Shown: one piece after another, positions 4,603 through 64,000 of the stretch
How the letters are laid out: every line of letters starts with the position of its first letter
Numbering within the stretch: position 1 is the first letter of the stretch
From: an uncultured virus (IMG/VR IMGVR_UViG_3300023283_000176)
Taxonomy: Duplodnaviria; Heunggongvirae; Uroviricota; Caudoviricetes
Reading direction: 5' to 3' (one strand)
Virus record (IMG/VR): IMGVR_UViG_3300023283_000176
Length of the DNA: 64,000 nt
Program-made: the position numbers and the translations under genes
The notes under the pieces: model-generated
What the model was told of the DNA's origin: nothing
Seen by the model: the letters and a program-made list of their open reading frames with translations, nothing else
Database searches by the model: none

Positions 4603-4687
4603 GTGTTGTGTAGGAATTTTTTTGAAATCCATAAAACCCTTTATACATTGGCATCAGATTAAAGAATTGTCCTCTAAACCCCAAACA

Positions 4688-4855
4688 ATGAATGCTGAAC
4701 ACGAACTTATTATTGCCTTAGTTCAAGCCCTCAAAGACACAAACAGATTCATAGAACCATTCATATTTGAATCTGCTGAATTAAGCGCACAATTATCTGA
4801 AAATGAAGAACTGATTCAGATGGTCGAACCTGACATCGACAATTTTAACTTTTAA
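4688..4855 (+). CDS. Hypothetical protein (start reassigned to MNAEHEL)
   Basis: ATG 4688 directly follows CCTCTAAACCCC. Confidence 0.6.
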   Translation: MNAEHELIIALVQALKDTNRFIEPFIFESAELSAQLSENEELIQMVEPDIDNFNF

Positions 4856-4863
4856 CCCCCCCT

Positions 4864-5145
4864 ATGATTAATAAATTTACAGAATGGATAGGTCAAGCCC
4901 TATATGAAGATGCACTTGAATTTGTGAATACTGGCATTAAAAAAGCCGATGTAGCTTATCAACGTTTAGCTGAGTCCAAAGAAGTGAAAAAACAAAAAAA
5001 TGACAAAATCACGGAAAAGATTCGAAAAATGAACCAAAAAAAGGATCAAAACAATCGTGAAATTGAAAACATTGGTAAACAACAAAAACAACTTTCAAAT
5101 CTGATGACAAACTTGGAAAAATTGAAATCACCCCCTACGCCCTAA
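4864..5145 (+). CDS. Hypothetical coiled-coil protein
   Basis: ORF with K/Q/N-rich heptads. Confidence 0.6.
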   Translation: MINKFTEWIGQALYEDALEFVNTGIKKADVAYQRLAESKEVKKQKNDKITEKIRKMNQKKDQNNREIENIGKQQKQLSNLMTNLEKLKSPPTP

Positions 5146-5254
5146 CCTCTAAACCCAAACCAAACCCCCTACGGTGTGGCATGTGAAAGCGTCACTTCCG
5201 TCTCCCATAATGGGAAATTTAATTAAAAGATGATCCTCTAAACCTCAATATATT

Positions 5255-5893
5255 ATGTCCGAACACGCCCCTTTTTATAATATTACTTTCGACGGAATCT
5301 CTGCCCAAGATTTTGAATTCGATGCTGATATAATCTCAATCGAAGGGATGATTGTTAATTCGTCAGATCCGTATGGAACCCTGCGTACAATTTTGAAAAC
5401 AATTAAGACCAAACACGGTATCGAAGATGCGTCTAATTTCGAAATCATGTTATTCCTATCTGAAACATATTTTCAGAAATTGGAAAAAATGATTGTCGAA
5501 AATTCATTGGGTGATTTTGAATCTGGTAATCCATACTTCAAATGTGAAACCAGTCTTGGTCCCATCATTGTTAAACCTATTGAACCAACCGAGATGGAAG
5601 AAACAATTAATGACGGTGTAACTAACATTTCTGTCCAATGTATGCCTCAGTTATTTGAAGATCTGATTAACACTGTAGGCAGTTTTAAAAAACTCATTGA
5701 CGTGGTCAAGGAAGAAAATTTGGCTAAAGGAAATCCCGTAATTGGTATTGAACCAGATTCTTTTTTAAATCTGAAAAAATTAGCATTTGAACATCTGGAA
5801 ACTTTAACTATGGATATTGATGGTCAAGAGATCAAATTCTTTCCAGAGGTAAAGTCCTGCAATTATCCAAAATGTGACTGTGACAAAGTATGA
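5255..5893 (+). CDS. Hypothetical protein
   Basis: 212-aa ORF preceded by the upstream motif. Confidence 0.7.
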   Translation: MSEHAPFYNITFDGISAQDFEFDADIISIEGMIVNSSDPYGTLRTILKTIKTKHGIEDASNFEIMLFLSETYFQKLEKMIVENSLGDFESGNPYFKCETSLGPIIVKPIEPTEMEETINDGVTNISVQCMPQLFEDLINTVGSFKKLIDVVKEENLAKGNPVIGIEPDSFLNLKKLAFEHLETLTMDIDGQEIKFFPEVKSCNYPKCDCDKV

Positions 5894-6468
5894 CATGGCC
5901 CCAGTTTTACAAAGATAGGGTGGGTAGCCATCAATACCTACTCTACTTTGTAGACAAATATACCCCTTTTATTGATAAAATAAGTGAGTTGGTAGAAGAT
6001 TATATGTTTGGTATAGGAGAATTTGGTTGTGGGATTGCAACCACTTCAAAAGCCTTACAATACATTGGGTTGCCACATACTCATTACTGTTATGATATCT
6101 GTCCAACAATGTTGTATTTAGCTCGTGAGAACGTATTTCCGGATTTCTATTTTGGAAATTGCGAGACTCGCAAGTGTTTATTCCATTTACATGATATAAG
6201 TAAAAAAATGCCACCTCGACGTTATGACTTAATACATAGTCACGGCGTACTTGAACATTTTTCAGATGTTGAAATACAATCCATCATATATCATCAGCTT
6301 AATATGTCAGATAATATTGTTCATTATGTTCCAGGAGAATACGATGAACCTTCATTTGGAGACGAACGTTTAATGTCTGCATCGCAATGGCGGGAAATTT
6401 TGAAAGACTATCCTGTCGAAGTGTCTCAATTTAATGAAAATGATTTAATGATAACCTCTAAACCCTAA
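5890..6468 (+). CDS. Class I SAM-dependent methyltransferase
   Basis: EFGCGIA motif I; YDLIHSHGVLEHF. Confidence 0.8.
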   Translation: MTWPQFYKDRVGSHQYLLYFVDKYTPFIDKISELVEDYMFGIGEFGCGIATTSKALQYIGLPHTHYCYDICPTMLYLARENVFPDFYFGNCETRKCLFHLHDISKKMPPRRYDLIHSHGVLEHFSDVEIQSIIYHQLNMSDNIVHYVPGEYDEPSFGDERLMSASQWREILKDYPVEVSQFNENDLMITSKP

Positions 6469-6470
6469 TT

Positions 6471-7013
6471 ATGAAAGAACCGATTTCCACTATTACTAAT
6501 TTATTTTATGGTATCGTAGGTGTCATGTTTATTGGCGAATTGCCCTTAGTTGGGTTGGCACTGATTTCATTATTCGTGTCATCGGCATGGTTTCATTGGA
6601 CCAAAGGAATCAAAGCAAACACTGCTGATGTAATGGGCATGTTTTTTGTGTTCAATTCTATTATCGGAGCAATTATGGTAAACTTGGGTGCCTCTTTATT
6701 TGCCAGCCATGCTTTTGTAGTAGGAATGACAGCATTTATGGTTTGGAAAAGAGATTCTTATTCAACCATAGAAACGATAGCTATCCAATTTGCAATGATC
6801 ATCCTGGGCATGTCAGTGATTACAAATGATCTGTGGTTTATCGGTTGGTTTGGTTTAGCGATGATATTCAATATACCGTTTCTATTTCATCAAACATTTA
6901 ACAAAATCACAGGCATTGCATTAAATGAAAATTTAGTTGATGTGAGTCATGGCATATGGCATGTATCCACAGCAATGGGTTTTCACGAATTAATAACCAA
7001 TTTAACCTCTTAA
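6471..7013 (+). CDS. Multi-pass membrane protein, CREST (ceramidase/hemolysin-III/PAQR)-like
   Basis: About six TM segments; SSAWFH, D, HGIWH motifs. Confidence 0.6.
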   Translation: MKEPISTITNLFYGIVGVMFIGELPLVGLALISLFVSSAWFHWTKGIKANTADVMGMFFVFNSIIGAIMVNLGASLFASHAFVVGMTAFMVWKRDSYSTIETIAIQFAMIILGMSVITNDLWFIGWFGLAMIFNIPFLFHQTFNKITGIALNENLVDVSHGIWHVSTAMGFHELITNLTS

Positions 7014-7015
7014 TT

Positions 7016-9074: not shown

Positions 9075-9251
9075 ATGACAGATAAAGAAGTTGTGCAAAG
9101 TTTACGTGAAATAGCAGACCAAATTGAGGATGGTGCGCCAGTAGAAACCGCTTATTCGAAAGTTTACGGACATAAATACACTGTGCAGGCCACAGTCATT
9201 CAACAAGGCGTAAAAGAATCAAAACAACTAAGAAACATAATAAGCCAGTGA
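9075..9251 (+). CDS. 58-aa hypothetical protein
   Basis: Hand translation MTDKEVVQSLREIADQIEDG...; start abuts the previous stop codon. Confidence 0.55.
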   Translation: MTDKEVVQSLREIADQIEDGAPVETAYSKVYGHKYTVQATVIQQGVKESKQLRNIISQ

Positions 9252-9310
9252 TCATGGGATAGCCACGCTTTTGTACGGCGTGTACGGCGGTTCGATTCCG
9301 CCCACTGGCT
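9244..9310 (+). tRNA. tRNA-Thr(TGT) with a reduced D-arm
   Basis: Acceptor GCCAGTG/CACTGGC; anticodon stem ACGCT/GGCGT with loop TTTGTAC; T arm GGCGG-TTCGATT-CCGCC. Confidence 0.75.
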
Positions 9311-9331
9311 CAAACCTCTAAACCCGACATT

Positions 9332-10299: not shown

Positions 10300-11672
10300 G
10301 TTTATACAAAACCATCCTTAGTATAGGCATAAAAATAGGTGACGGGACCCCTCCCGTCGCCATAACCTCTAAACGCCAATACAATATGCTTAAAGATATG
10401 CACCCTTACGGGTTTTTGTCTTAAACGATATGCATGGGTGTTTAATTACTACCAAGATAAATATTTTTTTTATAAAGTCAATGCCGGTTTTAATATTTTT
10501 TTTTAATTGTAAGGAATTGGGCAGGCCCCAAGCAAACCCACCCCTTATCCAACGTTTAGGTTTAGAGGCTATGGCATCTCCTAAATGCCGGGGCAATGAT
10601 AAAAATTCTTTAAACCAATATCTACCCATTTTCCTAAATGTTATAAAAACCAAATTAATGACACTTTCTGCAAATAGTGCCAATAATTAGTCAGCTGTCA
10701 AGTATTACTGGACGACTGCTTTTTAATTCCAACTGATTATATGGTCAGTACTAATCAAATGTCTGTTGCGAGCTACTTCGCAATAGGTTCAACTTTTTTT
10801 GCAACCCACTTCGCAATTGGATTTTCTAAAGTTTATTTAATATGAGAGACTTTAGTAGTAGTAAATGGGTATAATATCGCCTCATGTTAGCAGAATCATG
10901 CTTATTTGCTGTTCTATCCCAATTTTGATACATTACCCTGTTTTTGCTTATTTGAAGCCCTCAGATCTAAAATTTGTGTTTGTTTGTAATTTACGGCAAA
11001 AATGGTCAAAACTTGCCAAAATATGGTGTATGTACTGTTTATATAGTACATTTGACATTGAGGCCTCTTTTAATGCACTGATTTGTTTTTGTTCTTACCT
11101 AATTTTTTTAAGTGGGTGTTTATAGAACAAGGGGAAATAATCTATTCTAAGAAAGTTTGTGAGGTCTTTTACTTAACTTTTTTAAGTGTTTGGATGTTTG
11201 AGCAAAATTTTTGATACGCATTAAAAACGGAACTATCACGCTTGGGGCGGGAGCGGTCGACCCCCGACGTACCCCCACCCTGCGATTTGTTTTTCTCCTT
11301 TCAACTATTTTTTTAGTTTTTTCTCCATTTTGACACTCAATTGTTTCTATATCCTGTATTTTCAACGTTTAATTTATACGTTTCTGTTTTTTATATGTTT
11401 ACCGTTCTTACGATTGTCTTAATATTAATTGTTATGTATTGGATAAGTGATTGATTTCTTATATATATGGTTATATGTTCAGTGAGATCAAGAGATTAGA
11501 AGATTTCATTTTATTGAGCTTATCTGTAAGCCATTGTTTTTATTCTAATAAGTGTGCTCTCAACTAACTTTATAATATGTGACATTTTTTTGTTTTAATT
11601 CTTGGTTTTTTGTCTTATAAGTTCTTGATAATTAACCACTTACAAATTTTCTTTATTTTCCCAAATTCCCTC

Positions 11673-13377: not shown

Positions 13378-13484
13378 TTGCGAAGTTCGCAATATAAACA
13401 ATTTGTTTGAGTAAATTATATTTATTATACTCATGCCAAGCTATAGGTTTATACCTATAGTTATAACCTCTAAATCCCAATATT

Positions 13485-13595: not shown

Positions 13596-13643
13596 ACCTG
13601 GCAATCGTTTCATAAATCCGAACTTTATAACCTCTAAATCCCA

Positions 13644-13718
13644 ATGGAATATCTTATAATAATCCCAATAGTAGTATGGGCATTCGGTACTATCATCGAC
13701 GTAACTATACTACAGTAA
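13644..13718 (+). CDS. 24-aa hydrophobic micro-protein
   Basis: MEYLIIIPIVVWAFGTIIDVTILQ after AACCTCTAAATCCC. Confidence 0.5.
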   Translation: MEYLIIIPIVVWAFGTIIDVTILQ

Positions 13719-13734
13719 CCTTTAAACCCTAATT

Positions 13735-13881: not shown

Positions 13882-13885
13882 CACA

Positions 13886-15906: not shown

Positions 15907-16115
15907 TTCTTTGAACAACTCAAGAAACATGATATTGAGTTAGACGAATTTGACAGAATTGTTGACAAATTAATTAAAAACATGGAGTTTCCAAATGTCA
16001 GTTAAGAAAAATCAAATCAAGGCTTTGCGTATGATGGTCGAACGCCCTATGCCGACTGATTCATATACGTCAGAGCAAGCAAAAAAGAATTAGATAACCT
16101 CTAAACCCTAAAACA

Positions 16116-17737: not shown

Positions 17738-17769
17738 TTATTAAACCTCTAAACCTAAAATATAATACA

Positions 17770-19501: not shown

Positions 19502-19821
19502 ATTTCAACGTAGAGAAAAAAGACAGCGGTGCATACGAAATCAGCACTGTGATTCACAAACGAAGGCTCTCGAAGGTATATATGGGCTATTCAAAAAAAG
19601 AAGCCATAAACGGTTTCAAAAAAGAAATAACAGAAAAATACGCAAAGGACATCGAACATTACCTATATAATGGACTCGGAGAATTAAGGAATGCTATTAT
19701 ATTAGCTGACCATATCGAATATGGTCCTGAGTCAGACAGAGATAATTTAGCCCAGATGTTTGACGACATTGAATACAACTTTGAACAATTAAAACGTGAG
19801 GCAAATAATGAAATGACTTGA
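19498..19821 (+). CDS. Hypothetical protein
   Basis: ORF in operon. Confidence 0.65.
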   Translation: MNFNVEKKDSGAYEISTVIHKRRLSKVYMGYSKKEAINGFKKEITEKYAKDIEHYLYNGLGELRNAIILADHIEYGPESDRDNLAQMFDDIEYNFEQLKREANNEMT

Positions 19822-19852
19822 TTTTCTAATATATTTTACATACTTTCAAATT
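19817..19852 (+). promoter_or_regulatory. Promoter copy A
   Basis: TTGATT-17-TACTTT; near-identical to 29782-29817. Confidence 0.65.
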
Positions 19853-19873
19853 TAACCTCTAAACCCAAATAAT

Positions 19874-21088: not shown

Positions 21089-21148
21089 ATGAAATACACC
21101 CCCCCCCATCTATACTGGTGGGGGGAAACCTCTAAACCCCAAAACAAT

Positions 21149-21636: not shown

Positions 21637-22115
21637 GTGTATATAACAACATGGACACAGCAATTGAGGGGTTGAATAATCTATTAGACATGGATTATGA
21701 AACCTTATCAGAACGAGAAGAATTTGACAATATCGAATTCCTTATAAAGGTCGCCGAGACAATAGCCATAGATTATGAGTCATCTGAATTTTATGATCCG
21801 GCTAAATTACATATCATTGGTAAACATCTTGAAGAATTCGGCAAAACTTTAAAAGACGCCAGTAAAGAAGATTTGATTGATGAATTGTTGCTCATGCAAG
21901 AAAATGAGGACGATAAATCGTTTGAAATCTGTGGACAGACTCTTACCCTCACGAACCGTCCCAAATATACATATCCAGACGATGAGCGTCTAACACTTTT
22001 GGAACGTCAGAAAAAATCAACTGCTGGTGCTCTTAAAAATTACAAGAATAAATTACGCAAAAATGGAGAAGTGAGTGCAATTAACAATTTTTCTGTCTCC
22101 ATTTCAAAATCCTAA
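21633..22115 (+). CDS. Hypothetical protein
   Basis: ATGA-coupled ORF before ERF. Confidence 0.65.
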   Translation: MSVYNNMDTAIEGLNNLLDMDYETLSEREEFDNIEFLIKVAETIAIDYESSEFYDPAKLHIIGKHLEEFGKTLKDASKEDLIDELLLMQENEDDKSFEICGQTLTLTNRPKYTYPDDERLTLLERQKKSTAGALKNYKNKLRKNGEVSAINNFSVSISKS

Positions 22116-22137
22116 CCTCTAAACCCCAATATATATA

Positions 22138-23013
22138 ATGTCGAAGAAAACATTTGAACAGAAAATTATTGATATCCAAAATAAAATCAATGTACCCAAA
22201 TCTCATTTCAATAGTTTTGGTGGATACCATTTTCGTAATTGCGAAGATATCCTGACAGCAGTGAAACCCCATCTTGCTGAATATGATCTATTACAAACCA
22301 TTAGTGATAAAATCATGGTTGTAGGAGAGGGCGAACAGCAACGTGTCTACATCAAAGCAACGGTAGAAGTTACTGATGGTGACAAATCAAAAGTGGTCAC
22401 AGGCTTTGCCAGAGAGGAAGATTCAAAGAAAGGTATGGACGATGCCCAGGTTAGTGGTTCTACGTCCAGCTATGCCCGTAAATATGCCCTTAATGGAATG
22501 TGGTTGATTGATGATGTAAAAGATCCTGATACGGAAGAACTAACAAAAGAACGTCAGAAAAAATCAACTAAGAAAACTAAGAAAAAGAGCACCAAAAAAT
22601 CTGTTAAAAAAACAGATACGGACGACGGTAGTTCTAAAAAGAAATCTACCAAGAAAAAAAGTGCTGAGAAACCTGGGCCATCCAAGAAAAAATCTATAAA
22701 AAAGGATGAGGCTCCATCCAAAAAAAAGACCACAAAGAAATCTGGTGGTTCAAAGAAAAAAGCCACCAAAACCACAAAGAAGAAATCTACCAAGAAGAAA
22801 AGTGCTAAGAAAACAACTAAAAAAGAACCCAAAAATAATGGTTCAGTAGATGTAGACATGGATGATGCTGTCGTAGAAGAATTAATGACCTCAGAAAGTG
22901 CATCAGAAGTGACACAGAAGTTGTTATCTATGCGCAATGAGGCCGACAACGCCCCTGCTTTCATGAAGAAGTACATGGCCATAGCAAACGAGATCATCGA
23001 ACAATTTGAATAA
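22138..23013 (+). CDS. erf: ERF-family single-strand annealing protein with a Lys-rich insert
   Basis: NSFGGYHFRNCEDIL, KKGMDDAQVSGSTSSYARKYALNG. Confidence 0.9.
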   Translation: MSKKTFEQKIIDIQNKINVPKSHFNSFGGYHFRNCEDILTAVKPHLAEYDLLQTISDKIMVVGEGEQQRVYIKATVEVTDGDKSKVVTGFAREEDSKKGMDDAQVSGSTSSYARKYALNGMWLIDDVKDPDTEELTKERQKKSTKKTKKKSTKKSVKKTDTDDGSSKKKSTKKKSAEKPGPSKKKSIKKDEAPSKKKTTKKSGGSKKKATKTTKKKSTKKKSAKKTTKKEPKNNGSVDVDMDDAVVEELMTSESASEVTQKLLSMRNEADNAPAFMKKYMAIANEIIEQFE

Positions 23014-23063
23014 ACCTCTAAACCCCAATGGGGGGAGCACCCCCCCCTTAAATTTTATACAAT

Positions 23064-23408
23064 ATGTTAAAAGAACTATCATACGAAGAACTCATTGAAA
23101 GAAAAGAAACCCTCTTAATGGAAGCGGATGATATTGAGCACCAGCTTGATATGGCGTCTGCATTGCAGAAAAAAGAGGGAGAATATTCTGATCCTGAATG
23201 GTACGCTAAGGCTAAATATGCTCGTAAGTGTCGTCTCAGAGAAGTAGAAAGAATAAATCGACGATTGTCTAAATTGGATGTTTTAACCCCCCTTGTTGAA
23301 GAATTGGATGCTTTTTTAACCCAAATTGAAAAAGATCCACGCATCACACCTGAACAACAAGAAAAATTAAATGAAACTAAATCTAATTTAGAAAAGATAA
23401 ACCTCTAA
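23064..23408 (+). CDS. Hypothetical protein
   Basis: 114-aa helical ORF. Confidence 0.65.
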   Translation: MLKELSYEELIERKETLLMEADDIEHQLDMASALQKKEGEYSDPEWYAKAKYARKCRLREVERINRRLSKLDVLTPLVEELDAFLTQIEKDPRITPEQQEKLNETKSNLEKINL

Positions 23409-23415
23409 ACTCCCT

Positions 23416-24359: not shown

Positions 24360-24871
24360 TCATCCACAATTTCAGCGTCCTCAATGTTGTTCTTTTCAAG
24401 CAATTTGACCAATTTTTTTAGTCCACCGCCCTCTCCAACAAAGAAATTATTTTGTTGGTTTTTGGGTATGGATTTAGATCCTTCTTTCTGCCACCCATCT
24501 GCTTCCAGAGCACGTAATTCGCTGGCACGAATCTTCGAATTACCTTTGGCTTCTTCAAAATGGATAAAATGTAAAGATTCAGAATACAAAGACTTAATTG
24601 TCTCTAAAACAGAAACAAAATTTTTATCTTCTTTTGTCCATTTATAATATGTGCCTGTAGAAATGCCTGCACGTATAGCCGGTTGCAATTTTTTTGGAAA
24701 AGATTCCAGAAATTCAATAATGTAAAGTTGTTGGTCAGATGAAAGATCGTCCCAACCATCAATCATGTCCAATTGGATAATGTCTCCATCTGGAAAACGT
24801 TGTTTAATTGCGCTGGATTTGGGAAGAAACTTTTCGACTTTGTTCGACATAACATTTAATTTAATTGACAA
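24356..24871 (-). CDS. Terminase small subunit-like HTH protein
   Basis: AIRAGISTGTYYKWTKEDKNF HTH; C-terminal QQNNFF...IEDAEIVD. Confidence 0.5.
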   Translation of the reverse strand: MSIKLNVMSNKVEKFLPKSSAIKQRFPDGDIIQLDMIDGWDDLSSDQQLYIIEFLESFPKKLQPAIRAGISTGTYYKWTKEDKNFVSVLETIKSLYSESLHFIHFEEAKGNSKIRASELRALEADGWQKEGSKSIPKNQQNNFFVGEGGGLKKLVKLLEKNNIEDAEIVDD

Positions 24872-25977: not shown

Positions 25978-26352
25978 TTAGACGAGAAATAAAAAAAAGG
26001 CCCCAAAACGACAATAGAGAACTTTAATTTTTTCCATGATTATGAAAATACTCGAAGATGGGTACTTCACAATTGTCCAGAAGTTTTAGACTCACTTGAT
26101 GAAGCTTATAAAAAGTGGGTGGTTATGATTGGGTCTATGAGAATTCTGATTAACACAACCAATTGTGGATATCTTCCACATAAAAGAGAAAAAATGTAAT
26201 TAAAGCCAGAGTTATTGAAGTAGATAAAAACAAAGCTAACTCAATTAAAGTTCTTCGCGTCAGAAATGTTTACTAAATTTCTGACAGAAAATTAACAAAA
26301 ATTTCCACAGGTCTAACCGCCTGTGGTTTGAACCTCTAAACCCCAACATATT

Positions 26353-27623: not shown

Positions 27624-27715
27624 AGTAATCAACAAAGCACACCCATCCTTTCCACATGAAATTGGGAAGGTTTTTTGGAAAGAATTAGACAACCTTTAAC
27701 CTCTAAACCCCTACA

Positions 27716-29403: not shown

Positions 29404-29427
29404 CTTAAACTAAACCTCTAAACCCCA

Positions 29428-29781: not shown

Positions 29782-29817
29782 CTTGATTTTCTCATAGATT
29801 TTACATACCTTGAAATT
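29782..29817 (+). promoter_or_regulatory. Promoter copy B, ahead of the replication operon
   Basis: TTGATT-17-TACCTT; near-identical to 19817-19852. Confidence 0.65.
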
Positions 29818-29838
29818 ATAACCTCTAAACCCTACAAA

Positions 29839-32846: not shown

Positions 32847-32866
32847 TAACCTCTAAACCCCATACA

Positions 32867-35483: not shown

Positions 35484-35530
35484 CTACGGAAGTACATAAA
35501 TTATTTTAATAACCTCTAAAACCCCATACA

Positions 35531-36406: not shown

Positions 36407-36456
36407 ATTAATTGCCACCTCGATAAAGGGGTGGCTTAACCTCTAAACCCCATACA

Positions 36457-37356: not shown

Positions 37357-37643
37357 CATTATTTAAACTGAAACATAAAAAGACAGGCAAAACATATATT
37401 GGAACCACATTCAACACAATAGCCGAAGAAATTGATAAAATTATATCTAATGAAAAGATATGTCCTGAATTGGCGGCAGATATTAAAAATAGTGGGTTAA
37501 GTAGATTTAAAAGTCAAAAAATAACCAGTAGTGAATCAGGAGTTAAAATCGCAAAACTCGAAAAAGTACACATTAATATGTTAAAAAAGAGAGATATGTG
37601 CTATAACGATGAACCCATCCTTTGCAAATTTTATAATCTCTAA
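37353..37643 (+). CDS. Small GIY-YIG-like protein
   Basis: TLFKLKHKKTGKTYIGTT...E...YN. Confidence 0.5.
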   Translation: MTLFKLKHKKTGKTYIGTTFNTIAEEIDKIISNEKICPELAADIKNSGLSRFKSQKITSSESGVKIAKLEKVHINMLKKRDMCYNDEPILCKFYNL

Positions 37644-37653
37644 ATTCCAAACA

Positions 37654-38091: not shown

Positions 38092-38450
38092 AAGGTAAGC
38101 AAATGACATTATTTCTCAGTTATTTTGAAAAACATACAGACGATCCACTTATCAAACACATGGTAAAAAGACGGATTCGTAATTATAGTTTAGGATTACG
38201 AAGGCATATAGAAATTATGGTCGACCGAGCAGATCCACCAAAAATGGAATGGAAACTTTATATATTAGCCATAATGAAATTTTTTCCTACGTTGCATGAA
38301 CCCATCCTTAAAGTAATGGGAGAAAAAGTGGAAGATCAATGGAAATTAAGAGAAGATGAGATCACCAAAAAATTCAAAAAACTTTTAACTGATCTCAATC
38401 TTCCTATTCCTCGTATTCTATCGAATCAAGCAGACCCAACGGGGGTATAA
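38088..38450 (+). CDS. Hypothetical protein
   Basis: Last gene of the plus-strand operon. Confidence 0.6.
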   Translation: MKGKQMTLFLSYFEKHTDDPLIKHMVKRRIRNYSLGLRRHIEIMVDRADPPKMEWKLYILAIMKFFPTLHEPILKVMGEKVEDQWKLREDEITKKFKKLLTDLNLPIPRILSNQADPTGV

Positions 38451-47400: not shown

Positions 47401-47769
47401 TGCTGTTTGGGTTACAGTGTTATGAATGTTTTTTTGAATTTTTGAAAGGGTTGCCTCTCTTGTGGTATTATTTTCTTCAAAAAATTCATCAGGATTTCGG
47501 TCTCCAAGTTGTTGTTCCAATACATTGTTGGCAACCTCAGAGACCAGAGACGGATCTGATCTAAGATCGTTTAAAATGGAGGTGGGATTGTGGCCTGTCC
47601 GGCCAGGTAAAAACTGTTTAAAAAAATTTCCTGTAATGATGTCTTGTTCTGTAAAATCTTCTTGGTCGGCTATCAAAGGAACATCAACAGGAGTGTTTGT
47701 CCTTGAGGACGGATTAGTTATAGTTTGTGTTTGTTGTTCTTCGTTTTGAGGAGTTTCGTTGTTAATCAT
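38404..47769 (-). CDS. Giant (3121 aa) putative internal virion / ejection protein
   Basis: Uninterrupted 9.4-kb ORF at the end of the virion operon, after two smaller helical proteins. Confidence 0.7.
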   Translation of the reverse strand: MINNETPQNEEQQTQTITNPSSRTNTPVDVPLIADQEDFTEQDIITGNFFKQFLPGRTGHNPTSILNDLRSDPSLVSEVANNVLEQQLGDRNPDEFFEENNTTREATLSKIQKNIHNTVTQTAYSGEEVRKSLRSGLEKTKKEMDLTTVNGAQSLIEKNAKQFGGLVNKDGKLDMNETAFRDLFNNDQQLQQQVLDVKLNEFNEQLTNKHNAGIIDPSMANRFPKRYAEAFAIFDRFGKEGLTDYINFFQETDTDVPFEEQSRFARKAIRFLNSPTQDGQTPLEYAKSVVNNTEFKPITPKKSKPAIHNGFTAPFIDGHENEEIQPGTRENDALAVASLIEKVGQKETETTGQESSFFGEFVSNLTSFNDKERMDELQDNIAVDDLKGFIADNDIVTPEDLVHTLFDEDTNSFNDSATYDNFLRLFSKQLLDDEHEDVKVADLFKTIQVHAFENNGFKEDEEGNPLYEFDYDSAPAMVKLATDLLTYRNGLDMFVRNSEDGEKMVLEPNRIERLQDEATRRLFSLADIQEVERVFDDEGNVVQERVVRDRVGQIPTDEPLTKREGNVERSYVLNNDILTLGGAVWNTGTVALNSVTSMLNDFVGKTFFRLTGEGSDFVEAMSNGIQNGEFKSKGELRQFSDQMVQDIAEITQSTYAPNAGLTSIQQATQIVAPLVSSIFLFKGMGRPLNKALGKQIDKSIVQRVATRNAKHLSGIRKATNLQRAKMFLKPPKNASGAGLYKASELRLRKLASGLKQSNSGTAQTLDFVAGGALYNIINELPQDEFSDKDNLLGSGLVDLGNDVVFDYDTDVEGWFKNLGDKAWYAPLMRIGVNVLAEETLGILFDSVIGGARFGKNSLFKLAGQEFSGLRVDPQTGKPIKTDQFREAFSPDYRRFIEEMRTGLAEMPRKDLESNVQSAGQAIAKSVQEDQVTMDDLASDFVTNIKPLVKDLKGQMRDTITEYEKNVGSSNTLFGNERGDVLNADSIDLLSESFTKLFWKNVSANMAQIMDGKGYNKFINALRDLEEVDIEKKTNSGGAFQMSKAEAVDIASDIPNSRVQQVTVNGKELYEVMEIKPNEWIADLVEGMRANAGEVDKQRELNRFLASERTGDLESNSRANDFFEEHFGEQRVFDGRRGTIRSIIGDQFVLQDIDGRLFRAPVDATESRVSKGKGENTPEADLASVKADISDGKVFFEQNVKKIGEVNFDSPSSVRNGIRRVEDRIVDLNRRANAETADASIKSANEREIKELNKVVQFLENQLDTTKGRKAQKIRLKKVDENTLRQEAEKAEKFLNNRFELNLNDRANIASVMERVDNQLVDLRNRLNFGKESNRDALEKQIDERINASLFLQQRLSDLDATNSFFEDAPPGVRRWLTNDNDDLIDINDSDAIQQRIQTLNGLKEDPNAQNTIRNFNEPEIDSAIDRLSQRLQTLEQEGLTRGEVDLKAKTKELKTKTLELERQTLLERIDKNFGSALDKITKITSKNIRQSYRKVVNKAKKTDPTLQETGLQGRFVENVGYSMDELEPENVLRVAGGSMLTDYNQLNGGRAIRKFNPKKPGKKGDIFYTENPDGTVDYIRVNEVPTHPNGGLDETIPTDRFIEINGQMKLNPFYQRISPNELTTTTGALQRVRIAQVQDPFPDFSGKIVEVGEGSLVANVQRSMRKTADEVVEPRDVYEGQFDGIEFVGPKGRRFIKLISKDQLKDVSEFKDTDITDTSKLEKTRPTDSYITQGANPPVPLKQIEPQTVNKHAQQVIVDLRSNGFENARIEAEINSKLETPVNGATKEYDPDTPAVQTNDLEVGDYFSLRDSDGNRRNAKHTGTKNGNFAYRLVKDDGSLGKEQTFNTSGVDKSYNIVERDGKFMVAVQSNNSGRILKLRRDLASTSRETVESYLQGVRQVRPTPGIPKIHKPFAMATAGLGIMVAEEALDIDLNEFETQEASLFSFQGVLGALIVGGLLRKGFQAYTPRAYRKVATLKKGFVDSIDDTIDPSAVQTLRKGEKETLVKEAQSRGVLLSPDDPIFSRFNQNVRDILESGNGLQEATRKMVQNKFVQSTFSMAQRSGVQSVMEFSDFLTNLPAKIQQMRNSFGDEFNEKHGVNAFNTFLRVGPEILDEFVPDQITTSNGTRQLRGSQRERSRTRAFNESLDRLMNSKLEFNEDGTARIVETQKSVDQQYNSPNGRTFQKIDEKMLNDERVVDAIKSMRNRFKELASEHRTLLNGFERQETSRVWMTERMRTVKSGDSRFTMNQNQYQILVDDFFLKFKGTWDEYIQTFDDKNVKKVLKNAKRFDPAVKRLDKIRDVKLRFTEGLEEFYYPQMSSRSKIGRARKEMGEENFEAELRQSFMDLNAEDDAVKKYDPDTQKVKTFEFETQEKAILHLKNAIGNSQRVPREAQQAFERNFGAFTDDNFTQGLLNRGVIKEVVKETPMGDGRVRKVKRFVIEDSDDNPLTNLQGDNNQTFNVIRLANNKEYDDFYDLMLTGDFVKNSSFLENPRNFLIDQRWRETDPSVILDRYAGDVAKRIEALKFNILDETELGKKFNKMESDLLDTGFRQSDARSHVERMKTAYNEVFRIIPELANFSTAKQKKDFLDRKLRNQQISEGIRNLFYGRYATSIALLDTFQTFITTSQLTSFKDVMRVLGRVAPTNNLSNLIQNSEELGVVFRQVEAMLADFDDAPKHAFSSDDPALNFVGGFNSFSRSLSRFWTQKFDVPNLVPKQLRESPLGSLTENAGIKLTLGNLRTKNEVNLTMNWMAHMTMLNDLVKNWRQIRDGNGIRGVSRGDVQAQFEMLGIARSEIDDVVDRIPDLNERLTEAGRNGKRFLSSDMDPLVEDVLERVIIRATETYTGKNQMFRPEWHNPTARVATTFWNFSFNQSMQTVERRFLNPLRSFTDKHPEASSKTNLMYNLLATRFMSPKKRRARFKKLGWSDQAIDDLPFRSLDSFVRLVGASGLNKMFTWSMDSMRKFASLAVLNFAFDDDSPQDELNTFGFTGRGGVVESLNIEDITLNANDSVDDQVRIGDAKHIKDMASLMMYMYGMEQALVDGFVNAGYGGPLAAGMHRFNDPTPAGISMISGDIAGVARFLTGVMEDDRSVERVGFNVAQQFIPPLGLLDSIEYEE

Positions 47770-50717: not shown

Positions 50718-50759
50718 TGTTAAAATTGTTTAGGGTTTAGAGGTTGCTATAAAGATAGT

Positions 50760-50790
50760 AAGGATTCCTCAGAAAACCTGAGAAATCCTT
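50760..50790. promoter_or_regulatory. Inverted repeat (terminator or operator)
   Basis: AAGGATTCCTCAG-aaaac-CTGAGAAATCCTT. Confidence 0.55.
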
Positions 50791-50808
50791 GACAACAGAA
50801 TAAAAAGT

Positions 50809-51084
50809 TTATATCTGCTCTATCTTATTTTTCAGTTCTAACAAACTATTGTCATAATTTTCCAATGCTTTGGTGGTCTGTTCTTGAATTTTTGCTTTCT
50901 GAAACGTTTCCATCTCAGTAATCAGATCATTGATCTTTGCATCAAACTCGGGGTCGTCTTTCAGAATGGTGTGATTGACATGTCCATCCACGGTCTGACC
51001 CTTAATATTAACTGCATTGTCTGTACTTGTGGCCTGAATGTAGAAATTCTGTCCTACATTGGCATTGACTGTGTGATTAATCAT
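50809..51084 (-). CDS. Small tail-associated protein, duplicated at the window start
   Basis: Downstream of the tail fibre; 104-bp identity with nt 1-104. Confidence 0.75.
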   Translation of the reverse strand: MINHTVNANVGQNFYIQATSTDNAVNIKGQTVDGHVNHTILKDDPEFDAKINDLITEMETFQKAKIQEQTTKALENYDNSLLELKNKIEQI

Positions 51085-57775: not shown

Positions 57776-57794
57776 GTTGGGTTGGGTTTAGAGG

Positions 57795-60692
57795 TTATCT
57801 TCGTTTTACAAGATAATCAAAACCTATGGAACGAAGAAAAAATCCCTCGACAACAGAACGAATTTTCCAGAAAAAACTTCGAGAATTATTTGATCTGCCT
57901 GTTCCAGGTTTTATACCGATCTTGTAACGACCATTAATTTTAGTTTTCTGTGTGAGATCAACAATATATGGATTCTCAAAATATTTGGAATCATAATGTA
58001 ATTCCAAAAGACCAAGGTTTGGGCTTTCAGTGTCTACATATAGTTTACGATATCGTTTTAATTGGGTGGGTGCATCTAATGTGTTTGCAGTAGATGTTAT
58101 TTCGGTAACAAATTGATCTCCGCCAAAATCATTGCCTTGATTATGCAAATTGTACTGATCATTCCTGAAAGCCATAAGCTCATCAGCAAAATGTTGGCCT
58201 ACCACATTACCATACGTATAAGGACCCATCCATTCACCCAATTCAAAAGAATATGCATATGTTTTTGCAGTAACACCCTGTGGAATAGGTATGGACACGC
58301 TATTTTGATTATCAGTATTATCAAGTCCTTCAAATACTGTCAACCTGTATTCTTTGTTACGTGGGTCAATCATTCCAACGCATGTGTCACCAATTTCAAT
58401 AGAGCCATTGGTTAAATTCTGCATTTGTCCGTCAAACATCCATACATCTCTTGTATCTGAAAAAATGACCATTTTTTCAAATTCAACAATCGAATTGTAT
58501 TGAATATGCGGTACAGATTTTAAAATCCATTGTGGGTTATGTAGAAACTGTGAAGATTTGATAAAAATATCACCAGAATCGTTTTGGGCTAACTGACCAC
58601 CCGCCTGACTCACAGCCACGGCTCGTTCACAAAATATTAACAATGTGTTACGGTGTGAGGCCAGTTTAATTATTTTACCGTATTCAGTGGGCACATCAAG
58701 AAATGATGTAAACAAATACTTTCTGGCACCAGATCTATTCGAACCCACGACTGTCTTTTCAGACCACACTAACTGGTTAGGGAATTCTTCTTCAAGTAAT
58801 TTTAAATCTTCTTCAAGTAATAATCTTTCAATTACATTGGATTCGAGCAAACGTGGAAATATTAAAGATTCTTCCTGCACATATTCAAATCCTGTGTGTT
58901 TAAAACGCCCATTGAAAAGAAAATTCTGTGTAAAAGTAGTTTGGTCATAATAACTACCGATGTAAATTAAATTGTCGTTGATGAATTCGTCAGCTTCGGT
59001 GGAATCAAAAATAGTGTTTGCTTCAAGACCAACATGTAAATCAAACGTATCTTGAAATAATGTCTCACTACCTGGTACGGCGATTTGGTCAATCTCTGAA
59101 CCTGTTGGGTCAGGAAGTTCAAAATCAACGCCTACCAATTCAAAATTAAATCTTGGAGTCAAACCACCGTCTGTACGTATGAACTCGTCTCCACGTAAAA
59201 TGTCCGGATCGAAATCGAATCTATCGTAATTACCAACTGTGTCCTGATTGTTGATTCCGCGCCTGTCTATTCGCGAATAAATTGAATCAAAAGGTAAAAC
59301 CAAATAAATTCTGGATGATGGTGGTATGAGTAAATGTCCGTGATCTGTGGCTCTTACGTCCGCAGAAAATGAAGTATCAACAACGGAATCAACTGTTTCT
59401 TCAAAATCAACAAAATCAGAAGAATCTACCTGTGTACTTAAATTGACCAAATTCTTCAATCTGACCTTTACATCCGCTACCCTAACAGCCCGTTCTAATG
59501 AATCTGCAAAGGATAATTTGTAAACATATTCATATAAAAAACCATCCGGAGGGGCATTATGAAATGCGTTATCCTCATGATCATCATCAACAATTATATG
59601 AGCGTGTCTGCTATAAGTAAGCGGTTGTTGTTCAACGAAGGATTTTTCCAAAAAATCAGGCACAAATTCAGATGCCTCTACAGCATCTATAAAATTACCA
59701 CTGCCTGTATCAGGAATAAAAACATCCACCTCATCAACAATAATGAAATCATTTATATTGACGTTCTCAATCCTCTGAAAATCTTCATCACGAATAATAT
59801 CAAAATATTTTGCGGTCCAATTCCCAGAAGTTGAGTTAAAACCGTAATTAGCAAAAACTCTTTTAAAAAATTTAAAACCAAGAAAAATCTGTGGCCGATT
59901 GTTGAAAAAAGGTAATTCTGTTTGTGAAGAAGCTAATGTTTGTACGTTCTGATTATTGATTTCAATAGAATTAAAAGGGATGGTTAATTTATCTTCTTCA
60001 TTGATGTTCGGGTCTTTTTGGACTCTCAAAAACAACGCAACGACTTGAAAAGAACCATCAAAATCGCCACTCACATCAGGTATAGGATTCAACTTTAAAG
60101 TCTTGTCCCTTTCAATATTTTGCAGTTCATTTGAAACTGGCATGTGGAAACTATCTTGACCATCAGGAAAAACTACTTTCGCATATAATTGGACTGTTGC
60201 ATTAGTTGGTAATGTTGGGTTACCTTCTTCCACGGCCACATCAACTGTCTCGATGTTGAACAAGCGAGGGAAATTTACAGACCTTTCAGGATATACCAAA
60301 TCACCCCTGATGATACGATCTTCCATCTCTGTTTGAGTTCCGTGTTTTTCAGTGTAAACGATTTCTAAATCATCAAGGTCGTTGCCTTCAAGTTTGCCGT
60401 CGTCTACATATTCAATGAACTTTATCTCTGTACCTAATACCGTTTCTTGGTTAGGATCGACAGTTTCAATATGTCTGAATGGTGTGTCTCCTTCTTTTCG
60501 ATATATTTCAACTCGGGCATATTTGACATCCGTTGGTTTTGAATGCAAATCCTCAGATACTACAATATCTAAATCCGCTTTTCTCTGGGTCAAATCGGTG
60601 CGGATGATTTTTGGTTGAGACACCATACTAACATGCCCATCGACATACTGGTGTCTATAAACATAATAATATGTTTGATCGGGTTTCAACAT
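57795..60692 (-). CDS. Tail nozzle / stabilisation protein (C-terminal part)
   Basis: YYYVYRHQYVDG..S; FLDVPTEYGKIIKL..LLIFCE; TYAYSFELGEW; KRYRKLYV. Confidence 0.65.
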   Translation of the reverse strand: MLKPDQTYYYVYRHQYVDGHVSMVSQPKIIRTDLTQRKADLDIVVSEDLHSKPTDVKYARVEIYRKEGDTPFRHIETVDPNQETVLGTEIKFIEYVDDGKLEGNDLDDLEIVYTEKHGTQTEMEDRIIRGDLVYPERSVNFPRLFNIETVDVAVEEGNPTLPTNATVQLYAKVVFPDGQDSFHMPVSNELQNIERDKTLKLNPIPDVSGDFDGSFQVVALFLRVQKDPNINEEDKLTIPFNSIEINNQNVQTLASSQTELPFFNNRPQIFLGFKFFKRVFANYGFNSTSGNWTAKYFDIIRDEDFQRIENVNINDFIIVDEVDVFIPDTGSGNFIDAVEASEFVPDFLEKSFVEQQPLTYSRHAHIIVDDDHEDNAFHNAPPDGFLYEYVYKLSFADSLERAVRVADVKVRLKNLVNLSTQVDSSDFVDFEETVDSVVDTSFSADVRATDHGHLLIPPSSRIYLVLPFDSIYSRIDRRGINNQDTVGNYDRFDFDPDILRGDEFIRTDGGLTPRFNFELVGVDFELPDPTGSEIDQIAVPGSETLFQDTFDLHVGLEANTIFDSTEADEFINDNLIYIGSYYDQTTFTQNFLFNGRFKHTGFEYVQEESLIFPRLLESNVIERLLLEEDLKLLEEEFPNQLVWSEKTVVGSNRSGARKYLFTSFLDVPTEYGKIIKLASHRNTLLIFCERAVAVSQAGGQLAQNDSGDIFIKSSQFLHNPQWILKSVPHIQYNSIVEFEKMVIFSDTRDVWMFDGQMQNLTNGSIEIGDTCVGMIDPRNKEYRLTVFEGLDNTDNQNSVSIPIPQGVTAKTYAYSFELGEWMGPYTYGNVVGQHFADELMAFRNDQYNLHNQGNDFGGDQFVTEITSTANTLDAPTQLKRYRKLYVDTESPNLGLLELHYDSKYFENPYIVDLTQKTKINGRYKIGIKPGTGRSNNSRSFFWKIRSVVEGFFLRSIGFDYLVKRR

Positions 60693-61174: not shown

Positions 61175-61923
61175 TATAAGCTCTTATTGCGTGGGGTTTT
61201 GCTAATATATCGGATGCGTTTATTTTCGCGTTTCTGTTTGTATCTCTGTGTACCAAAATGACGTGGTTTTAATCTGACATGGGGACGATTTTTTGTTCCT
61301 CTCCATTTTCTTGAAACATCATGAGCTTCTTCGCTGGCCTCTAATGGGTCGCCTATACCAAGTATCCTTTCTACCTCAGTAATGATCGCATTCCAATAAG
61401 TGTCATCCAAATTGCGGATGTATGTTTCAGTCGGTTTGAAATAATATTCAACAAAAATTAAATCATTTACTTCTTTAGGAAACGGGGCGATCACCAATAC
61501 GTTTTTAAAATCATCTTCGTTTGTAAGATTTAACCGTGGTGTAGAATACAACGGTTTGTTCTTCATTTTAGCAATGCGTTCGATATTGAAATGATTGTCC
61601 CAAAATTCCAGGTCGAGTTTTCGTTCATTCACTCGAATATCGTCCAATTCAGAATAATCGTCCGGCAACATGAAATAAGAAAATAAATGTTCACCATTAC
61701 GATTAATATATTTTTTCCCATCTTCTGGTAAATACTGTACTGTCTTTGGGGGGATGACCGACCGATTTTGTAACTTAATGATGGCTCTCTTAACATTGAA
61801 AGGGATACTATTTAGAATGTCCTCTCTATTTGTTTTCACAACCTGATCATCAACCACTCTCTCTTGTGGTATTTTAGTTTTGATGGCTGTACGTACTACT
61901 TCATAAATATTACTCATCGTCAC
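61174..61923 (-). CDS. Tail ring / adaptor-like protein
   Basis: FMLPDDY...IAPFP...VEYYFKP. Confidence 0.55.
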   Translation of the reverse strand: MTMSNIYEVVRTAIKTKIPQERVVDDQVVKTNREDILNSIPFNVKRAIIKLQNRSVIPPKTVQYLPEDGKKYINRNGEHLFSYFMLPDDYSELDDIRVNERKLDLEFWDNHFNIERIAKMKNKPLYSTPRLNLTNEDDFKNVLVIAPFPKEVNDLIFVEYYFKPTETYIRNLDDTYWNAIITEVERILGIGDPLEASEEAHDVSRKWRGTKNRPHVRLKPRHFGTQRYKQKRENKRIRYISKTPRNKSL

Positions 61924-62773
61924 TCACCTGTTGCGGTTGTGGGGTTGTTAGTTTACGTAATATGGAATTAACTACCTGTTCACGAGTTTGAAGAATGACA
62001 GAAGTACTTAATGGGATTTTTTCTTCTGGTTTTTCGATTTTTACCCAATCCGGAATGTACCAAATATGGAAAAAACCTATATCATTAGATATGTATAAAT
62101 CACCACTGTTCTCACTAAATGTATAATGTGAAACTTGCGAGGTTCGCAATTCTCGAAATGGTAAATAATAAGGCTCAACCAAAGCGTCGCCAACAAACAT
62201 CCAATAATGCTGTTCAAGATTAGATAAATCATTAGTGAAATCCACACTGGCTTCAAAATTCTGTGTAGCCCTGTAATATTTTCCATTTTGTACTACATAA
62301 ACCAATTGCCCAGTCTCAATTTGTTCACCCGTTACCAAATAAGTGACCTCATCAGAAAGGAATGTCAGTGATTTTGAAGCAACATTTTGTACGTCATTCA
62401 CTGCGACATACAATTTATCATTTATGCGGGCAAGTGTGTCTTTTGAAAATGTTTGTGGTGTGTCTTTGATCTTATTATTGGTAACATAACCAATGGCACG
62501 AATAATGGATTGATGTGGATCAAGATCATTTTCGGGTGGTGGGTCCAACTTAACCTTTTTAAATTGGGTACTGATCGCCGAAGGGTTGGGTAAATTAAAT
62601 GTTTTTTCAATCGCATATCGCTCATCATTGCCTTGTTTAATGTCCTGACTTCGTGCAATTGGAGCGAACAGATTGAACTCTCTGATTATATCCTCAGTAA
62701 AAATTTCGCTTCTGCTTAACCCTTGTGTGGTTAACATTGTAGTTACCAACTCGGTAAAATCTTTTAATGTCAT
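61910..62773 (-). CDS. Tail ring / adaptor-like protein
   Basis: Operon position; WYIPD...IPL. Confidence 0.5.
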   Translation of the reverse strand: MTLKDFTELVTTMLTTQGLSRSEIFTEDIIREFNLFAPIARSQDIKQGNDERYAIEKTFNLPNPSAISTQFKKVKLDPPPENDLDPHQSIIRAIGYVTNNKIKDTPQTFSKDTLARINDKLYVAVNDVQNVASKSLTFLSDEVTYLVTGEQIETGQLVYVVQNGKYYRATQNFEASVDFTNDLSNLEQHYWMFVGDALVEPYYLPFRELRTSQVSHYTFSENSGDLYISNDIGFFHIWYIPDWVKIEKPEEKIPLSTSVILQTREQVVNSILRKLTTPQPQQVSDDE

Positions 62774-63429
62774 TATAGTCCATTGTCTCTGATTTCACTT
62801 AAAAAACTATTTTCATAAGCACCGGCTAAATCGCCATTTTGATCTTTCAGTGCCATTTTCTTACAAGAAGCGTATATGACGGCCCTTTCCAGGTGTTTTG
62901 GTAAATCTGGTAAATCTGTATCAGTGTCAGTTATTGGTGTCGGTTTGACAATATAATAGAGACGTACCTGATCTTCATTTGTAGAAATCTCTTTACCAAA
63001 AATCTGCATTGTTTTTTGTTGACTATTTGAAGCAATGTGGTAAAAATATTCCATCCAATTAGGTATTGCGGTCCCAAGATCAATCAAAATAAGTTGTTTG
63101 CTTTTAAGCTCCCTGAGCGTGATGGTCTCAGAACGTGAAACGTCAATAAAGGCTGAATGAACAATATCTAAAATAGTGTCGGGTAAATCTATTTCAGTGA
63201 CTTGATTACCATTTTCTTCTACAACTGGTTCAACAACATCAATTACGTTCCTTAAACGTAAATCATCTAAGGAACGTAATGTGACATCAGTGTCTCTTTC
63301 CATTTGTGCCAATACAGACACAGTACGAGAATACCCACCATTTAAAAATTCGATAACGTCATCAGGAGAAAAGAATTCATCTTCTTGATCCCCGTATGTA
63401 GATATGACTTTTTCGACGAGTGTTCTCAT
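62773..63429 (-). CDS. Tail ring / adaptor-like protein
   Basis: FSPDDVIEFLN...IDLPD...LYYIVKP...DLPKHLERAVIYA. Confidence 0.65.
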   Translation of the reverse strand: MRTLVEKVISTYGDQEDEFFSPDDVIEFLNGGYSRTVSVLAQMERDTDVTLRSLDDLRLRNVIDVVEPVVEENGNQVTEIDLPDTILDIVHSAFIDVSRSETITLRELKSKQLILIDLGTAIPNWMEYFYHIASNSQQKTMQIFGKEISTNEDQVRLYYIVKPTPITDTDTDLPDLPKHLERAVIYASCKKMALKDQNGDLAGAYENSFLSEIRDNGL

Positions 63430-63431
63430 AT

Positions 63432-63935
63432 TTAACCGTCTTTATCTTTTTTAGTGGATTTCTTTTTGGTGGGCGATTTTTTGGTCACTTTTTTCTTAGT
63501 CGCTGTCTTAGTCGTATCTTGGTCATTGTCTTGGTCAGTGTCGCCATCATCACCATTATCAGCTTCCATGACCTCAATAATATCATTAGTGGCTGGTACG
63601 CCAACCAATTCTGCTTTAATTAAAGATGGAAATGTGTTTTTAGCGCCAACAACTTGACCAACTTTTAAAATTGTTTCATCTGAAACATCGTCAAAAAAGT
63701 CGGAACCGATATATTCTGGTTCATCGTCATTTTCAAGATAATTAGCAACCAATTCAGGATCAGTCACAAGAACATATCTGCCTCTTTTGTAGAAACTGTG
63801 ACTCAAAAGGGCTTTGATTTCTTCTTTATCAGTAGTGGTTTTTGTGCCTTTTGAAAAGTAAATTTCTTTTTCGCCAGCAAAAATGGGACCAATTCTGTTC
63901 TGTTTAGGTGATTTGGATGCAAAAGTTACTTCCAT
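63432..63935 (-). CDS. Virion-operon hypothetical protein with acidic and Lys-rich tail
   Basis: FSKGTKTTTDKEEIKALLSH; preceded by motif variants. Confidence 0.65.
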   Translation of the reverse strand: MEVTFASKSPKQNRIGPIFAGEKEIYFSKGTKTTTDKEEIKALLSHSFYKRGRYVLVTDPELVANYLENDDEPEYIGSDFFDDVSDETILKVGQVVGAKNTFPSLIKAELVGVPATNDIIEVMEADNGDDGDTDQDNDQDTTKTATKKKVTKKSPTKKKSTKKDKDG

Positions 63936-64000
63936 TGTCGTAGGGTTTAAATTTGAAGTTAGGGGTTTAAAAAAGACACTAACCCCGTCAAGAGTTAGTG

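Follow-up and report, generated by a model that had tools for sequence, protein, structure and literature searches.

Repeated leader motif in a temperate phage and its prophage relative

The stretch analysed here (the window, 64,000 nucleotides of the 73,950-base uncultured-virus record IMGVR_UViG_3300023283_000176) encodes two integrases, an excisionase-like protein, a helicase, a family B DNA polymerase, an SSB, and RecA-like and Erf-like proteins, together with virion proteins that include a capsid and an adaptor of SU10 type, a P22-like portal and a weak match to the crAss muzzle. Because the integrases, the excisionase-like gene, the SU10-type capsid and adaptor and the P22-like portal were found, the window DNA was classed by its gene content as a temperate podovirus-like phage. 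A short motif was repeated just ahead of the start codons of many of its genes, and the distribution, conservation and probable role of this motif are described below.

The first-pass annotation of the window had pointed to about 30 copies of a 13-base motif in the place of a Shine-Dalgarno (SD) site. The repeat was borne out, since the 13-mer occurred 16 times exactly in the window and not once in 100 shuffles, and 30 copies were found at two mismatches or fewer, against 1.55 expected from shuffles. The whole record held 19 exact 13-mers, and the reversed-pattern control gave none. An ATG was located 13-32 nt past the first base in 24 of the 30 near copies, including 15 of the 16 exact ones. 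The copy at 23400 was followed by a GTG start codon, no clear gene was found behind the copies at 5144 and 8565, and the minus-strand matches at 628, 4339 and 10570 had no tie to any called gene. Each of the 17 start codons named earlier proved to be an ATG that lay 2-15 nt past the end of the motif. The full 13-mer did not hold as the conserved unit, however, which was AACCTC(C/T)AA followed by a C-run in both the window phage and its prophage relative described below. Positions 1-6 and 8-9 were near-fixed, a result partly set by the motif definition used, and positions 10-14 formed a loose C-run. The motif leaders were nearly free of G and had an A/C-rich spacer after the C-run.

The relative was a syntenic prophage of about 73 kb in the Balneolaceae genome G147, with proteins 25-75% identical to those of the window phage (capsid, 74%), and a third relative was the 11-kb metagenome contig L193. 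Since a single genome among the 283 of the order, and likewise one among the 401 of the class, had the capsid gene, the evidence for conservation of the motif comes from two genomes and one 11-kb contig. A Balneolaceae host is likely, because the closest named capsid relative (74%) came from Gracilimonas and the named integrase relatives were Balneolaceae. The G147 chromosome and the genomes of its order were adopted as the host control, which may differ from the window phage's own host strain. In viral contigs, four scans with proteins gave no relative, and no capsid relative was found among annotated phages; capsid homologues were located on contigs of 54-77 kb. Scans of viral contigs for the motif with an ATG gave 47 and 21 single matches, a chance-like result, with no more than six near copies in any of the 42 of 47 records searched. 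The tRNA-Val attachment core of the window was rejected as a host marker, as it matched 25 loci in several phyla and did not fix the host by itself; none of 23 genomes with a match to this core was enriched for the motif.

A motif gene was defined by at most one mismatch in AACCTC(C/T)AA at 10-34 nt ahead of a candidate start. The motif preceded 29 of 76 called genes in the record and 35 of 86 in the G147 prophage, including capsid, scaffold-like and tail genes and also the earliest genes. Position 7 was T in 21/21 exact-core copies of the window phage and C in 22/30 of those in G147, and the T form stood before the capsid gene of L193. Of 11 orthologous starts picked by hand, on both strands, 8 showed the switch in the same direction; it exceeded the codon-level base bias (p = 4e-4 and 0.014), although the genome-wide bias runs the same way (third-position T share, 0.69 vs 0.48). 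Adjacent leaders were more alike than in shuffled order, beyond the core (p = 0.002 and 0.009), which suggested local copying. An apparent seven-base periodicity of the leaders was discarded, being the consensus itself.

Relation to start codons, host genes and the 16S rRNA tail

The spacing to start codons was determined with a pattern that needs no ATG itself and was written after the sites had been seen. An ATG followed 11-32 nt past 23 of 25 record sites and 33 of 36 prophage sites (background 0.36 and 0.30), in agreement with the sense-strand, start-associated placement first described, and past only 3 of 10 host sites. The distance from the first base of the motif to the start codon had a median of 20 nt and a standard deviation of 4, compared with a standard deviation of 224 for the distance to the upstream stop. 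The start overlapped the upstream stop in 6 of 64 motif genes and in 57 of 98 others (p = 1e-10), where genes with no neighbour on the same strand were taken as uncoupled and frames below 150 nt were left out. Within the upstream gene lay 11 of 59 copies, with the spacing kept. The predicted unpaired fraction from -25 to -1 was 0.75 in motif genes, compared with 0.58 in 150 host genes and 0.62 in 41 uncoupled phage genes lacking the motif. Adenine at -3 was present in 45/64 motif genes and 267/635 host genes, and adenine at -6 was near the host level.

A TAyyTT box, which from its consensus we take to be the Bacteroidota -7 box, lay just upstream of 6 of the 63 sites (background 1.9%), and the motif would then begin at +1 to +9. 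The boxes reported earlier ahead of 19854 and 29820 were both present, and the promoter of the host rRNA leader reads TTG-N21-TATCTTTG. Because the motif is downstream of host-type promoter boxes at these six sites, it is predicted to be transcribed there. The remaining sites were mostly mid-operon, where the motif preceded runs of consecutive genes. A likeness to boxA was dropped after the host rRNA leader had been inspected.

Host genes lacked the motif. A search of the complete G147 genome for the core plus ATG gave 30 matches, 23 of them inside the prophage; the 7 outside equalled the control of 7. Among the 635 genes called in 800 kb of the host, one had AACCTC(C/T) in its leader, and 16/635 were counted under the looser motif-gene rule. 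Among the 283 genomes of the order, G147 had 24 matches and the other 282 had 0-4 each, like the reversed control. Among the 20 best-looking host matches, picked by hand, one stood before a plausible gene. The generic host signal that had been posed as the counter-case to phage specificity was not supported by these counts.

The host 16S tail reads GGAUCACCUCCUUUC and contains the ACCUC match, so the likeness of the motif to the anti-SD itself was found as described: ACCUCC (6/6 bases) in most G147 copies and ACCUC (5/6) in the window phage. The tail core was unchanged among the matches listed for 98 of 283 genomes. None of the 64 motif leaders of both phages paired with the tail at -4.5 kcal/mol or better, and pairing of the motif elsewhere in 16S rRNA was no better than in shuffles. 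SD use in the host was low as well (129 vs 125 mock sites at -4.5 kcal/mol), with GGAG in 50/635 leaders against 24 expected, and a minority of host genes carried GGAG or GGAGG. In the structure described for Flavobacterium, Tyr54 of bS21, Tyr32, Phe50, Asn56 and Lys37 of bS18 and also bS6 keep the tail in place, with bS18 Asn56 in contact with U1537 and C1538 (Jha et al. 2021, PMC7797042). In Balneolaceae, bS21 had Arg at the position of Tyr54 in 5/5 proteins (numbering assumed ungapped), and bS18 lacked Phe50 and Tyr32 in the 3/3 read but kept Asn56, Gln58 and Lys/Arg37. These missing residues and the GGAG/GGAGG leaders weakened the earlier assumption of a host with its anti-SD sequestered in the Bacteroidia manner. 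Chlorobia are also reported to lack Tyr54 yet to be SD-poor (PMC9976891), and therefore such sequestration could still occur in the host. A complementary small RNA was sought in both phages, where antisense copies lay mostly in coding DNA and were not shared, and in 800 kb of the host (about a quarter of the genome), where 8 near-matches and 13 core matches yielded no candidate. Pairing with the D-arm of tRNA-Val was set aside, because it fits the T version only and the arm is paired.

Interpretation of the leader and its alternatives

Based on the above, we consider it somewhat better than an even chance that the motif is a portable, phage-private, SD-independent translation-start leader that the small subunit of the host reads, probably via bS1. 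An enhancer of translation, a protein-binding site and an RNA-processing signal had been offered before without ranking; the evidence favours translation initiation more than RNA processing or a DNA site. The leader would act on the mRNA as a single-stranded landing pad for fresh initiation, as its predicted openness suggests; the start codon would be fixed by this openness together with the adenine at -3, and genes coupled to an upstream stop would have no need of the leader. Local duplication or conversion, for which the phage encodes annealing and RecA-like proteins, has likely multiplied the copies and kept them alike, and this would account for a separate version in each phage. In Flavobacterium, adenines at -3, -6, -12 and -13 are reported to tune initiation, with positions -14 to -11 predicted near S1 (Baez et al. 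2019, PMC6847099), and bS1 is reported to stimulate SD-less initiation (Arpin et al. 2026, PMC13000457). The host encodes a six-repeat S1 protein, and unrelated Salinibacter phages have A/C-rich, G-poor leaders with repeated words of their own.

Several observations weigh against this reading. Among uncoupled genes, 41/99 had no motif, and gene starts came from our own codon-score caller, neither curated nor measured; the avoidance of coupled genes may come partly from coding constraint. Adenines at -12 and -13 (35/64 and 34/64) were slightly above the host level (290/635 and 304/635). With respect to a host reader of the exact word, host leaders were A/U-rich with a C share of 0.16, compared with 0.30 in motif leaders. 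In the Flavobacterium reporter described, UCCC at -14 to -11 cut output by 90% (PMC6847099), and the motif leaders are C-rich at -10 to -8. A near-fixed core across proteins 25-75% identical, combined with the position 7 switch, would fit a co-evolving phage reader equally well.

Such a reader is the basis of one alternative, in which the motif is an RNA tag through which a phage-encoded protein acts on the phage messages together, to promote, protect or repress them. The absence of the motif from host genes, the near-invariance of the core in two diverged phages and before the L193 capsid gene, and the shared direction of the switch at orthologous starts would suit this tag. It is nevertheless judged unlikely: no KH, S1, ribosomal-protein, NusG or RNase family was recognised in family scans of the phage proteins (72 + 22 against PHROGs, 28 + 106 against Pfam and 26 against NCBIfam), most of which had no family at all, the earliest genes carry the motif as well, and the base bias already favours the direction of the switch. 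Imitation of the anti-SD is improbable. ACCUC(C) would then copy 16S positions 1534-1539 and dock on the 30S platform or a tail-binding protein with no base-pairing, and the core does equal the host tail; its distance of 13-27 nt ahead of the start places it at the platform. Of the bS18 residues, Asn56, Gln58 and Lys/Arg37 are kept. On the other hand, bS21 Tyr54 and bS18 Phe50 and Tyr32 are not, and the UUUC end of the tail, the source of many pocket contacts, is not copied. No ACCUCU tail was seen among the matches listed for 98/283 genomes, yet the window phage has U in 21/21 copies. An intramolecular tail would outcompete the mRNA, and a match of five or six bases in a C-rich leader can arise by chance. 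In 50 kb of each record, AACCTC was enriched in the leaders of Salinibacter phage M31CR41-2 (6/68 vs 1.2 expected, tested after it had been seen) but not in those of M8CRM-1 (1/71) or RM378 (0/62).

At the DNA level, the motif resembles the stoperators of L5 and Bxb1 as described (PMC3029335) in being 13 bp long, asymmetric, present in about 30 copies (24-34 there), aligned with transcription, carried by a temperate phage and different in consensus between phages, and at 6/63 sites it covers +1 to about +20 of a predicted promoter. A repressor bound there would block elongation through the prophage. We regard this as improbable too, for the stoperators of that account are repressor-bound DNA with no tie to start codons, whereas the motif is tied to start codons instead of intergenic space, as its spacing indicates. 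Positions 10-13 vary freely in G147, a separate palindrome (TTGCGA-N3-TCGCAA) ignores gene starts and looks more operator-like, and no repressor was identified; of the helix-turn-helix (HTH)-like candidates, at 24903 and 24850, the one at 24850 resembles a small terminase. It is very unlikely that the motif marks cuts by which long transcripts become messages of one gene each, with a fixed leader. Some copies stand behind hairpins, one is 1 nt past a tRNA-like sequence, and the motif coincides with the predicted 5' end at promoter-proximal genes, but upstream hairpins were not enriched (14/64 vs 10/41 and 142/1000), the copies inside an upstream gene would make the cut truncate that gene, and no nuclease of that kind was recognised among the phage proteins. 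The least credible reading makes the motif either the promoter of a phage-encoded RNA polymerase or sigma factor or a start signal common to host genes. The motif is indeed repeated, oriented and upstream of genes, and is built of words favoured in host leaders (TAAC, CTAA, AAAC). Against this, the family scans recognised no phage polymerase or sigma factor, neither a DxDxD nor a T7-type polymerase motif is common to the 3121-aa protein of the window and its G147 orthologue, host-type promoters are found separately upstream, and the motif stands before consecutive genes; the host counts given above largely refute the generic signal.

Among known systems, the motif is closest to the start-associated sequence (SAS) of cluster K mycobacteriophages, whose function is described as untested (Pope et al. 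2011, PMC3203893; Shitikov et al. 2025, PMC12699233). Both are about 13 bp, asymmetric, in many copies of one orientation just before ATGs, mostly at genes spaced from the upstream neighbour and rare in the host. The cluster K consensus GGGATAGGAGCCC contains an AGGAG that can pair with 16S rRNA, whereas the motif has no G, does not pair and copies the anti-SD. The cluster K SAS is reported in 11-19 copies in the non-structural half at 3-7 bp, compared with 29-35 genes including virion genes at 11-32 nt here, and about half of the SAS copies have upstream inverted repeats (ESAS), compared with a TTGCGA palindrome that adjoins few copies only. There is no sequence likeness between the two, and lacking an SD core and reaching virion genes, the motif is not a member of the cluster K SAS. 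A repeat similar to SAS is also reported in phage Mordin (PMC4611695). Like the SD-less regions of Bacteroidia (PMC6847099, PMC7797042, PMC13000457), the motif leaders have no SD, are predicted to be open and are rich in A at -3, with adenines near -12/-13 at close to the host level; those regions are described as loose adenine preferences, in contrast to a fixed, phage-private word with C-runs in a host with pocket residues partly kept. No description of the element was found in the literature searched, supplements aside, and the exact 13-mer was listed in one unrelated rat paper. The motif is real and phage-specific, of a kind known but unexplained.

The epsilon enhancer in the T7 gene 10 leader is a short, U-rich, single-stranded word at about -20 that probably acts via S1 and works with an SD. 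It appears to begin with letters similar to those of the motif, but it is not known to be repeated before dozens of genes. In Salinibacter phage M8CRM-1, CCCCTAC was present in 14/71 leaders, with one TAACCTCCAAACC; RM378 and Bacteroides phage BF1-TP2 had no such leaders in the 50 kb covered.

How start sites are chosen with no SD, and what phage start-associated sequences do, are both open questions in the field. The motif is a fixed word conserved across diverged phages and absent from host genes, and it occurs in a prophage of a sequenced host chromosome, which makes its reader and function directly testable. If read by the host, it would offer a strong leader that could be used at once for expression work in Rhodothermia; if read by the phage, it would point to an unknown RNA-binding protein. 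If imitation of the rRNA tail were true, it would be a new initiation mechanism and a third route of ribosome recruitment, by imitation of rRNA instead of pairing, through which phage messages would outcompete host ones.

Individual sites and neighbouring features

The copies of the motif and related features are collected in the table below.

Table. Motif copies, associated promoter boxes and palindromes (window positions unless marked record)
Feature	Position	Strand	Context
Variant copy, 2 mismatches	4669..4681	+	before ATG 4688; orthologous G147 start also with motif
Exact copy	5144..5156	+	overlaps upstream stop; no clear gene behind
Variant copy	5233..5245	+	before ATG 5255
Exact copy	6453..6465	+	within end of upstream gene; before ATG 6471
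Short copy, AACCTCT core	7004..7012	+	before ATG 7016, MazG-like gene
Exact copy	9313..9325	+	1 nt past degenerate tRNA-Thr-like sequence; before ATG 9332
Copy	10364..10376	+	behind hairpin; before 12-codon frame
Copy	13465..13477	+	before ATG 13485 (50 aa)
Copy	13629..13641	+	before short hydrophobic frame
Copy, 1 mismatch	13717..13729	+	before an ATG
Exact copy	16096..16108	+	before ATG 16116
Variant AATCTCTAAACAA	16427..16439	+	within upstream gene; before ATG 16447
Variant AATCTCTAAACAA	17211..17223	+	within upstream gene; before ATG 17231
Copy	17744..17756	+	before ATG 17770
Host-type promoter TTG-N20-TACTTTCA and exact copy (19854-19866)	19818..19866	+	motif predicted from transcript +2; ATG 19874
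Exact copy	21127..21139	+	behind strong hairpin; before ATG 21149
Exact copy	22114..22126	+	before Erf-like annealing protein, ATG 22138
Exact copy	23013..23025	+	before 7-codon frame in hairpin; upstream of ATG 23064
Copy	23400..23412	+	before GTG 23416 (DNA methyltransferase)
Exact copy	26331..26343	+	behind hairpin; before ATG 26353
Exact copy	27698..27710	+	before excisionase-like gene, ATG 27716
Exact copy	29413..29425	+	before ATG 29428
Host-type promoter TTG-N20-TACCTTGA and exact copy (29820-29832)	29783..29832	+	motif predicted from +3; helicase ATG 29839
Exact copy	32848..32860	+	before DNA polymerase, ATG 32867
Copy	35511..35523	+	before ATG 35531
Exact copy	36438..36450	+	before RecA/UvsX-like gene, ATG 36457
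Variant copy	37635..37647	+	before ATG 37654
Exact copy	50733..50745	-	4 nt past TATCTTTA box; predicted from +1; ATG 50717
Exact copy	57784..57796	-	past TATCTTGT box; predicted from +8; ATG 57775
Degenerate leader AACCCCTAA ... TAAACCC	63936..63967	-	before ATG 63935
TTGCGA-N3-TCGCAA	6159, 13378, 14444, 25468, 29386, 41365, 51203, 62135; record 66630, 71899

The degenerate tRNA-Thr(TGT)-like sequence ahead of the copy at 9313 spans 9243-9311; Rfam families and standard tRNAs were not found in the window, and the G147 prophage gave tRNA-Thr and tRNA-Lys calls at a relaxed score. At 23028-23051 a G/C hairpin forms the 7-codon frame behind the motif, just ahead of the next gene, and is a possible small regulatory leader. 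A near-perfect palindrome at 2433-2458 precedes ATG 2470; its right arm contains a motif variant to which the left arm is complementary, and the palindrome could mask that leader.

The TTGCGA palindrome was found in 10 exact copies in the record, together with spacer variants, 4 in the G147 prophage and 4 in the 11 kb of L193, and in no exact copy in 800 kb of the host. Its copies lay inside and between genes, one being kept in the same HTH-like gene of both phages, and it looks like a DNA-binding site and a better operator candidate than the motif. A further element, CTGTTGTCAAGGA, was present three times (50786-50799; record 71580, 71940) upstream of late or divergent starts, twice above a TATCTT box, and is likely an activator-dependent promoter element.

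The end of the record repeats 2675-2846 (99%), and positions 1-122 match 50855-50976 in reverse complement (97%); for these reasons the first 2.7 kb of the window is likely a piece of a sister phage joined in assembly. This part (1-2674) bears the tRNA-Val attachment core (343-384) and an integrase. The non-coding stretch 11197-11280 was 83% identical to the G147 prophage within a 2.3-kb gene-poor region and is possibly a genome end or packaging site. The 3121-aa protein (38404-47769), about 31% identical to its orthologue and the last of three genes past the lysin, had no family or PDB match and is likely an ejected core protein. The profile of a conserved 154-aa protein (25513) matched no solved structure, and the single-sequence fold of a 164-aa protein (pLDDT 40) was too poor for use.

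Other repeated leaders were also observed. A second one, GGAACTATCATG, stood before 5 early genes of the G147 prophage (L080, G147:C1 1511230-1517960) and once in 800 kb of the host. In Bacteroidales-like metagenome contigs (L153, L160, L164, L167, L176, L207, L241), tandem heptamers TAACCTC/TAACCCC were located directly before the starts of ordinary genes. Among Salinibacter phages (L279:42660-49101; L280; L293), AAACCCCCTACAG recurs ahead of early genes in M8CRM-1 and M8CC-19, and M31CR41-2 repeats AACCTCTCAG and CAGCCAAC; these repeats are start-associated sequences in cultured phages.

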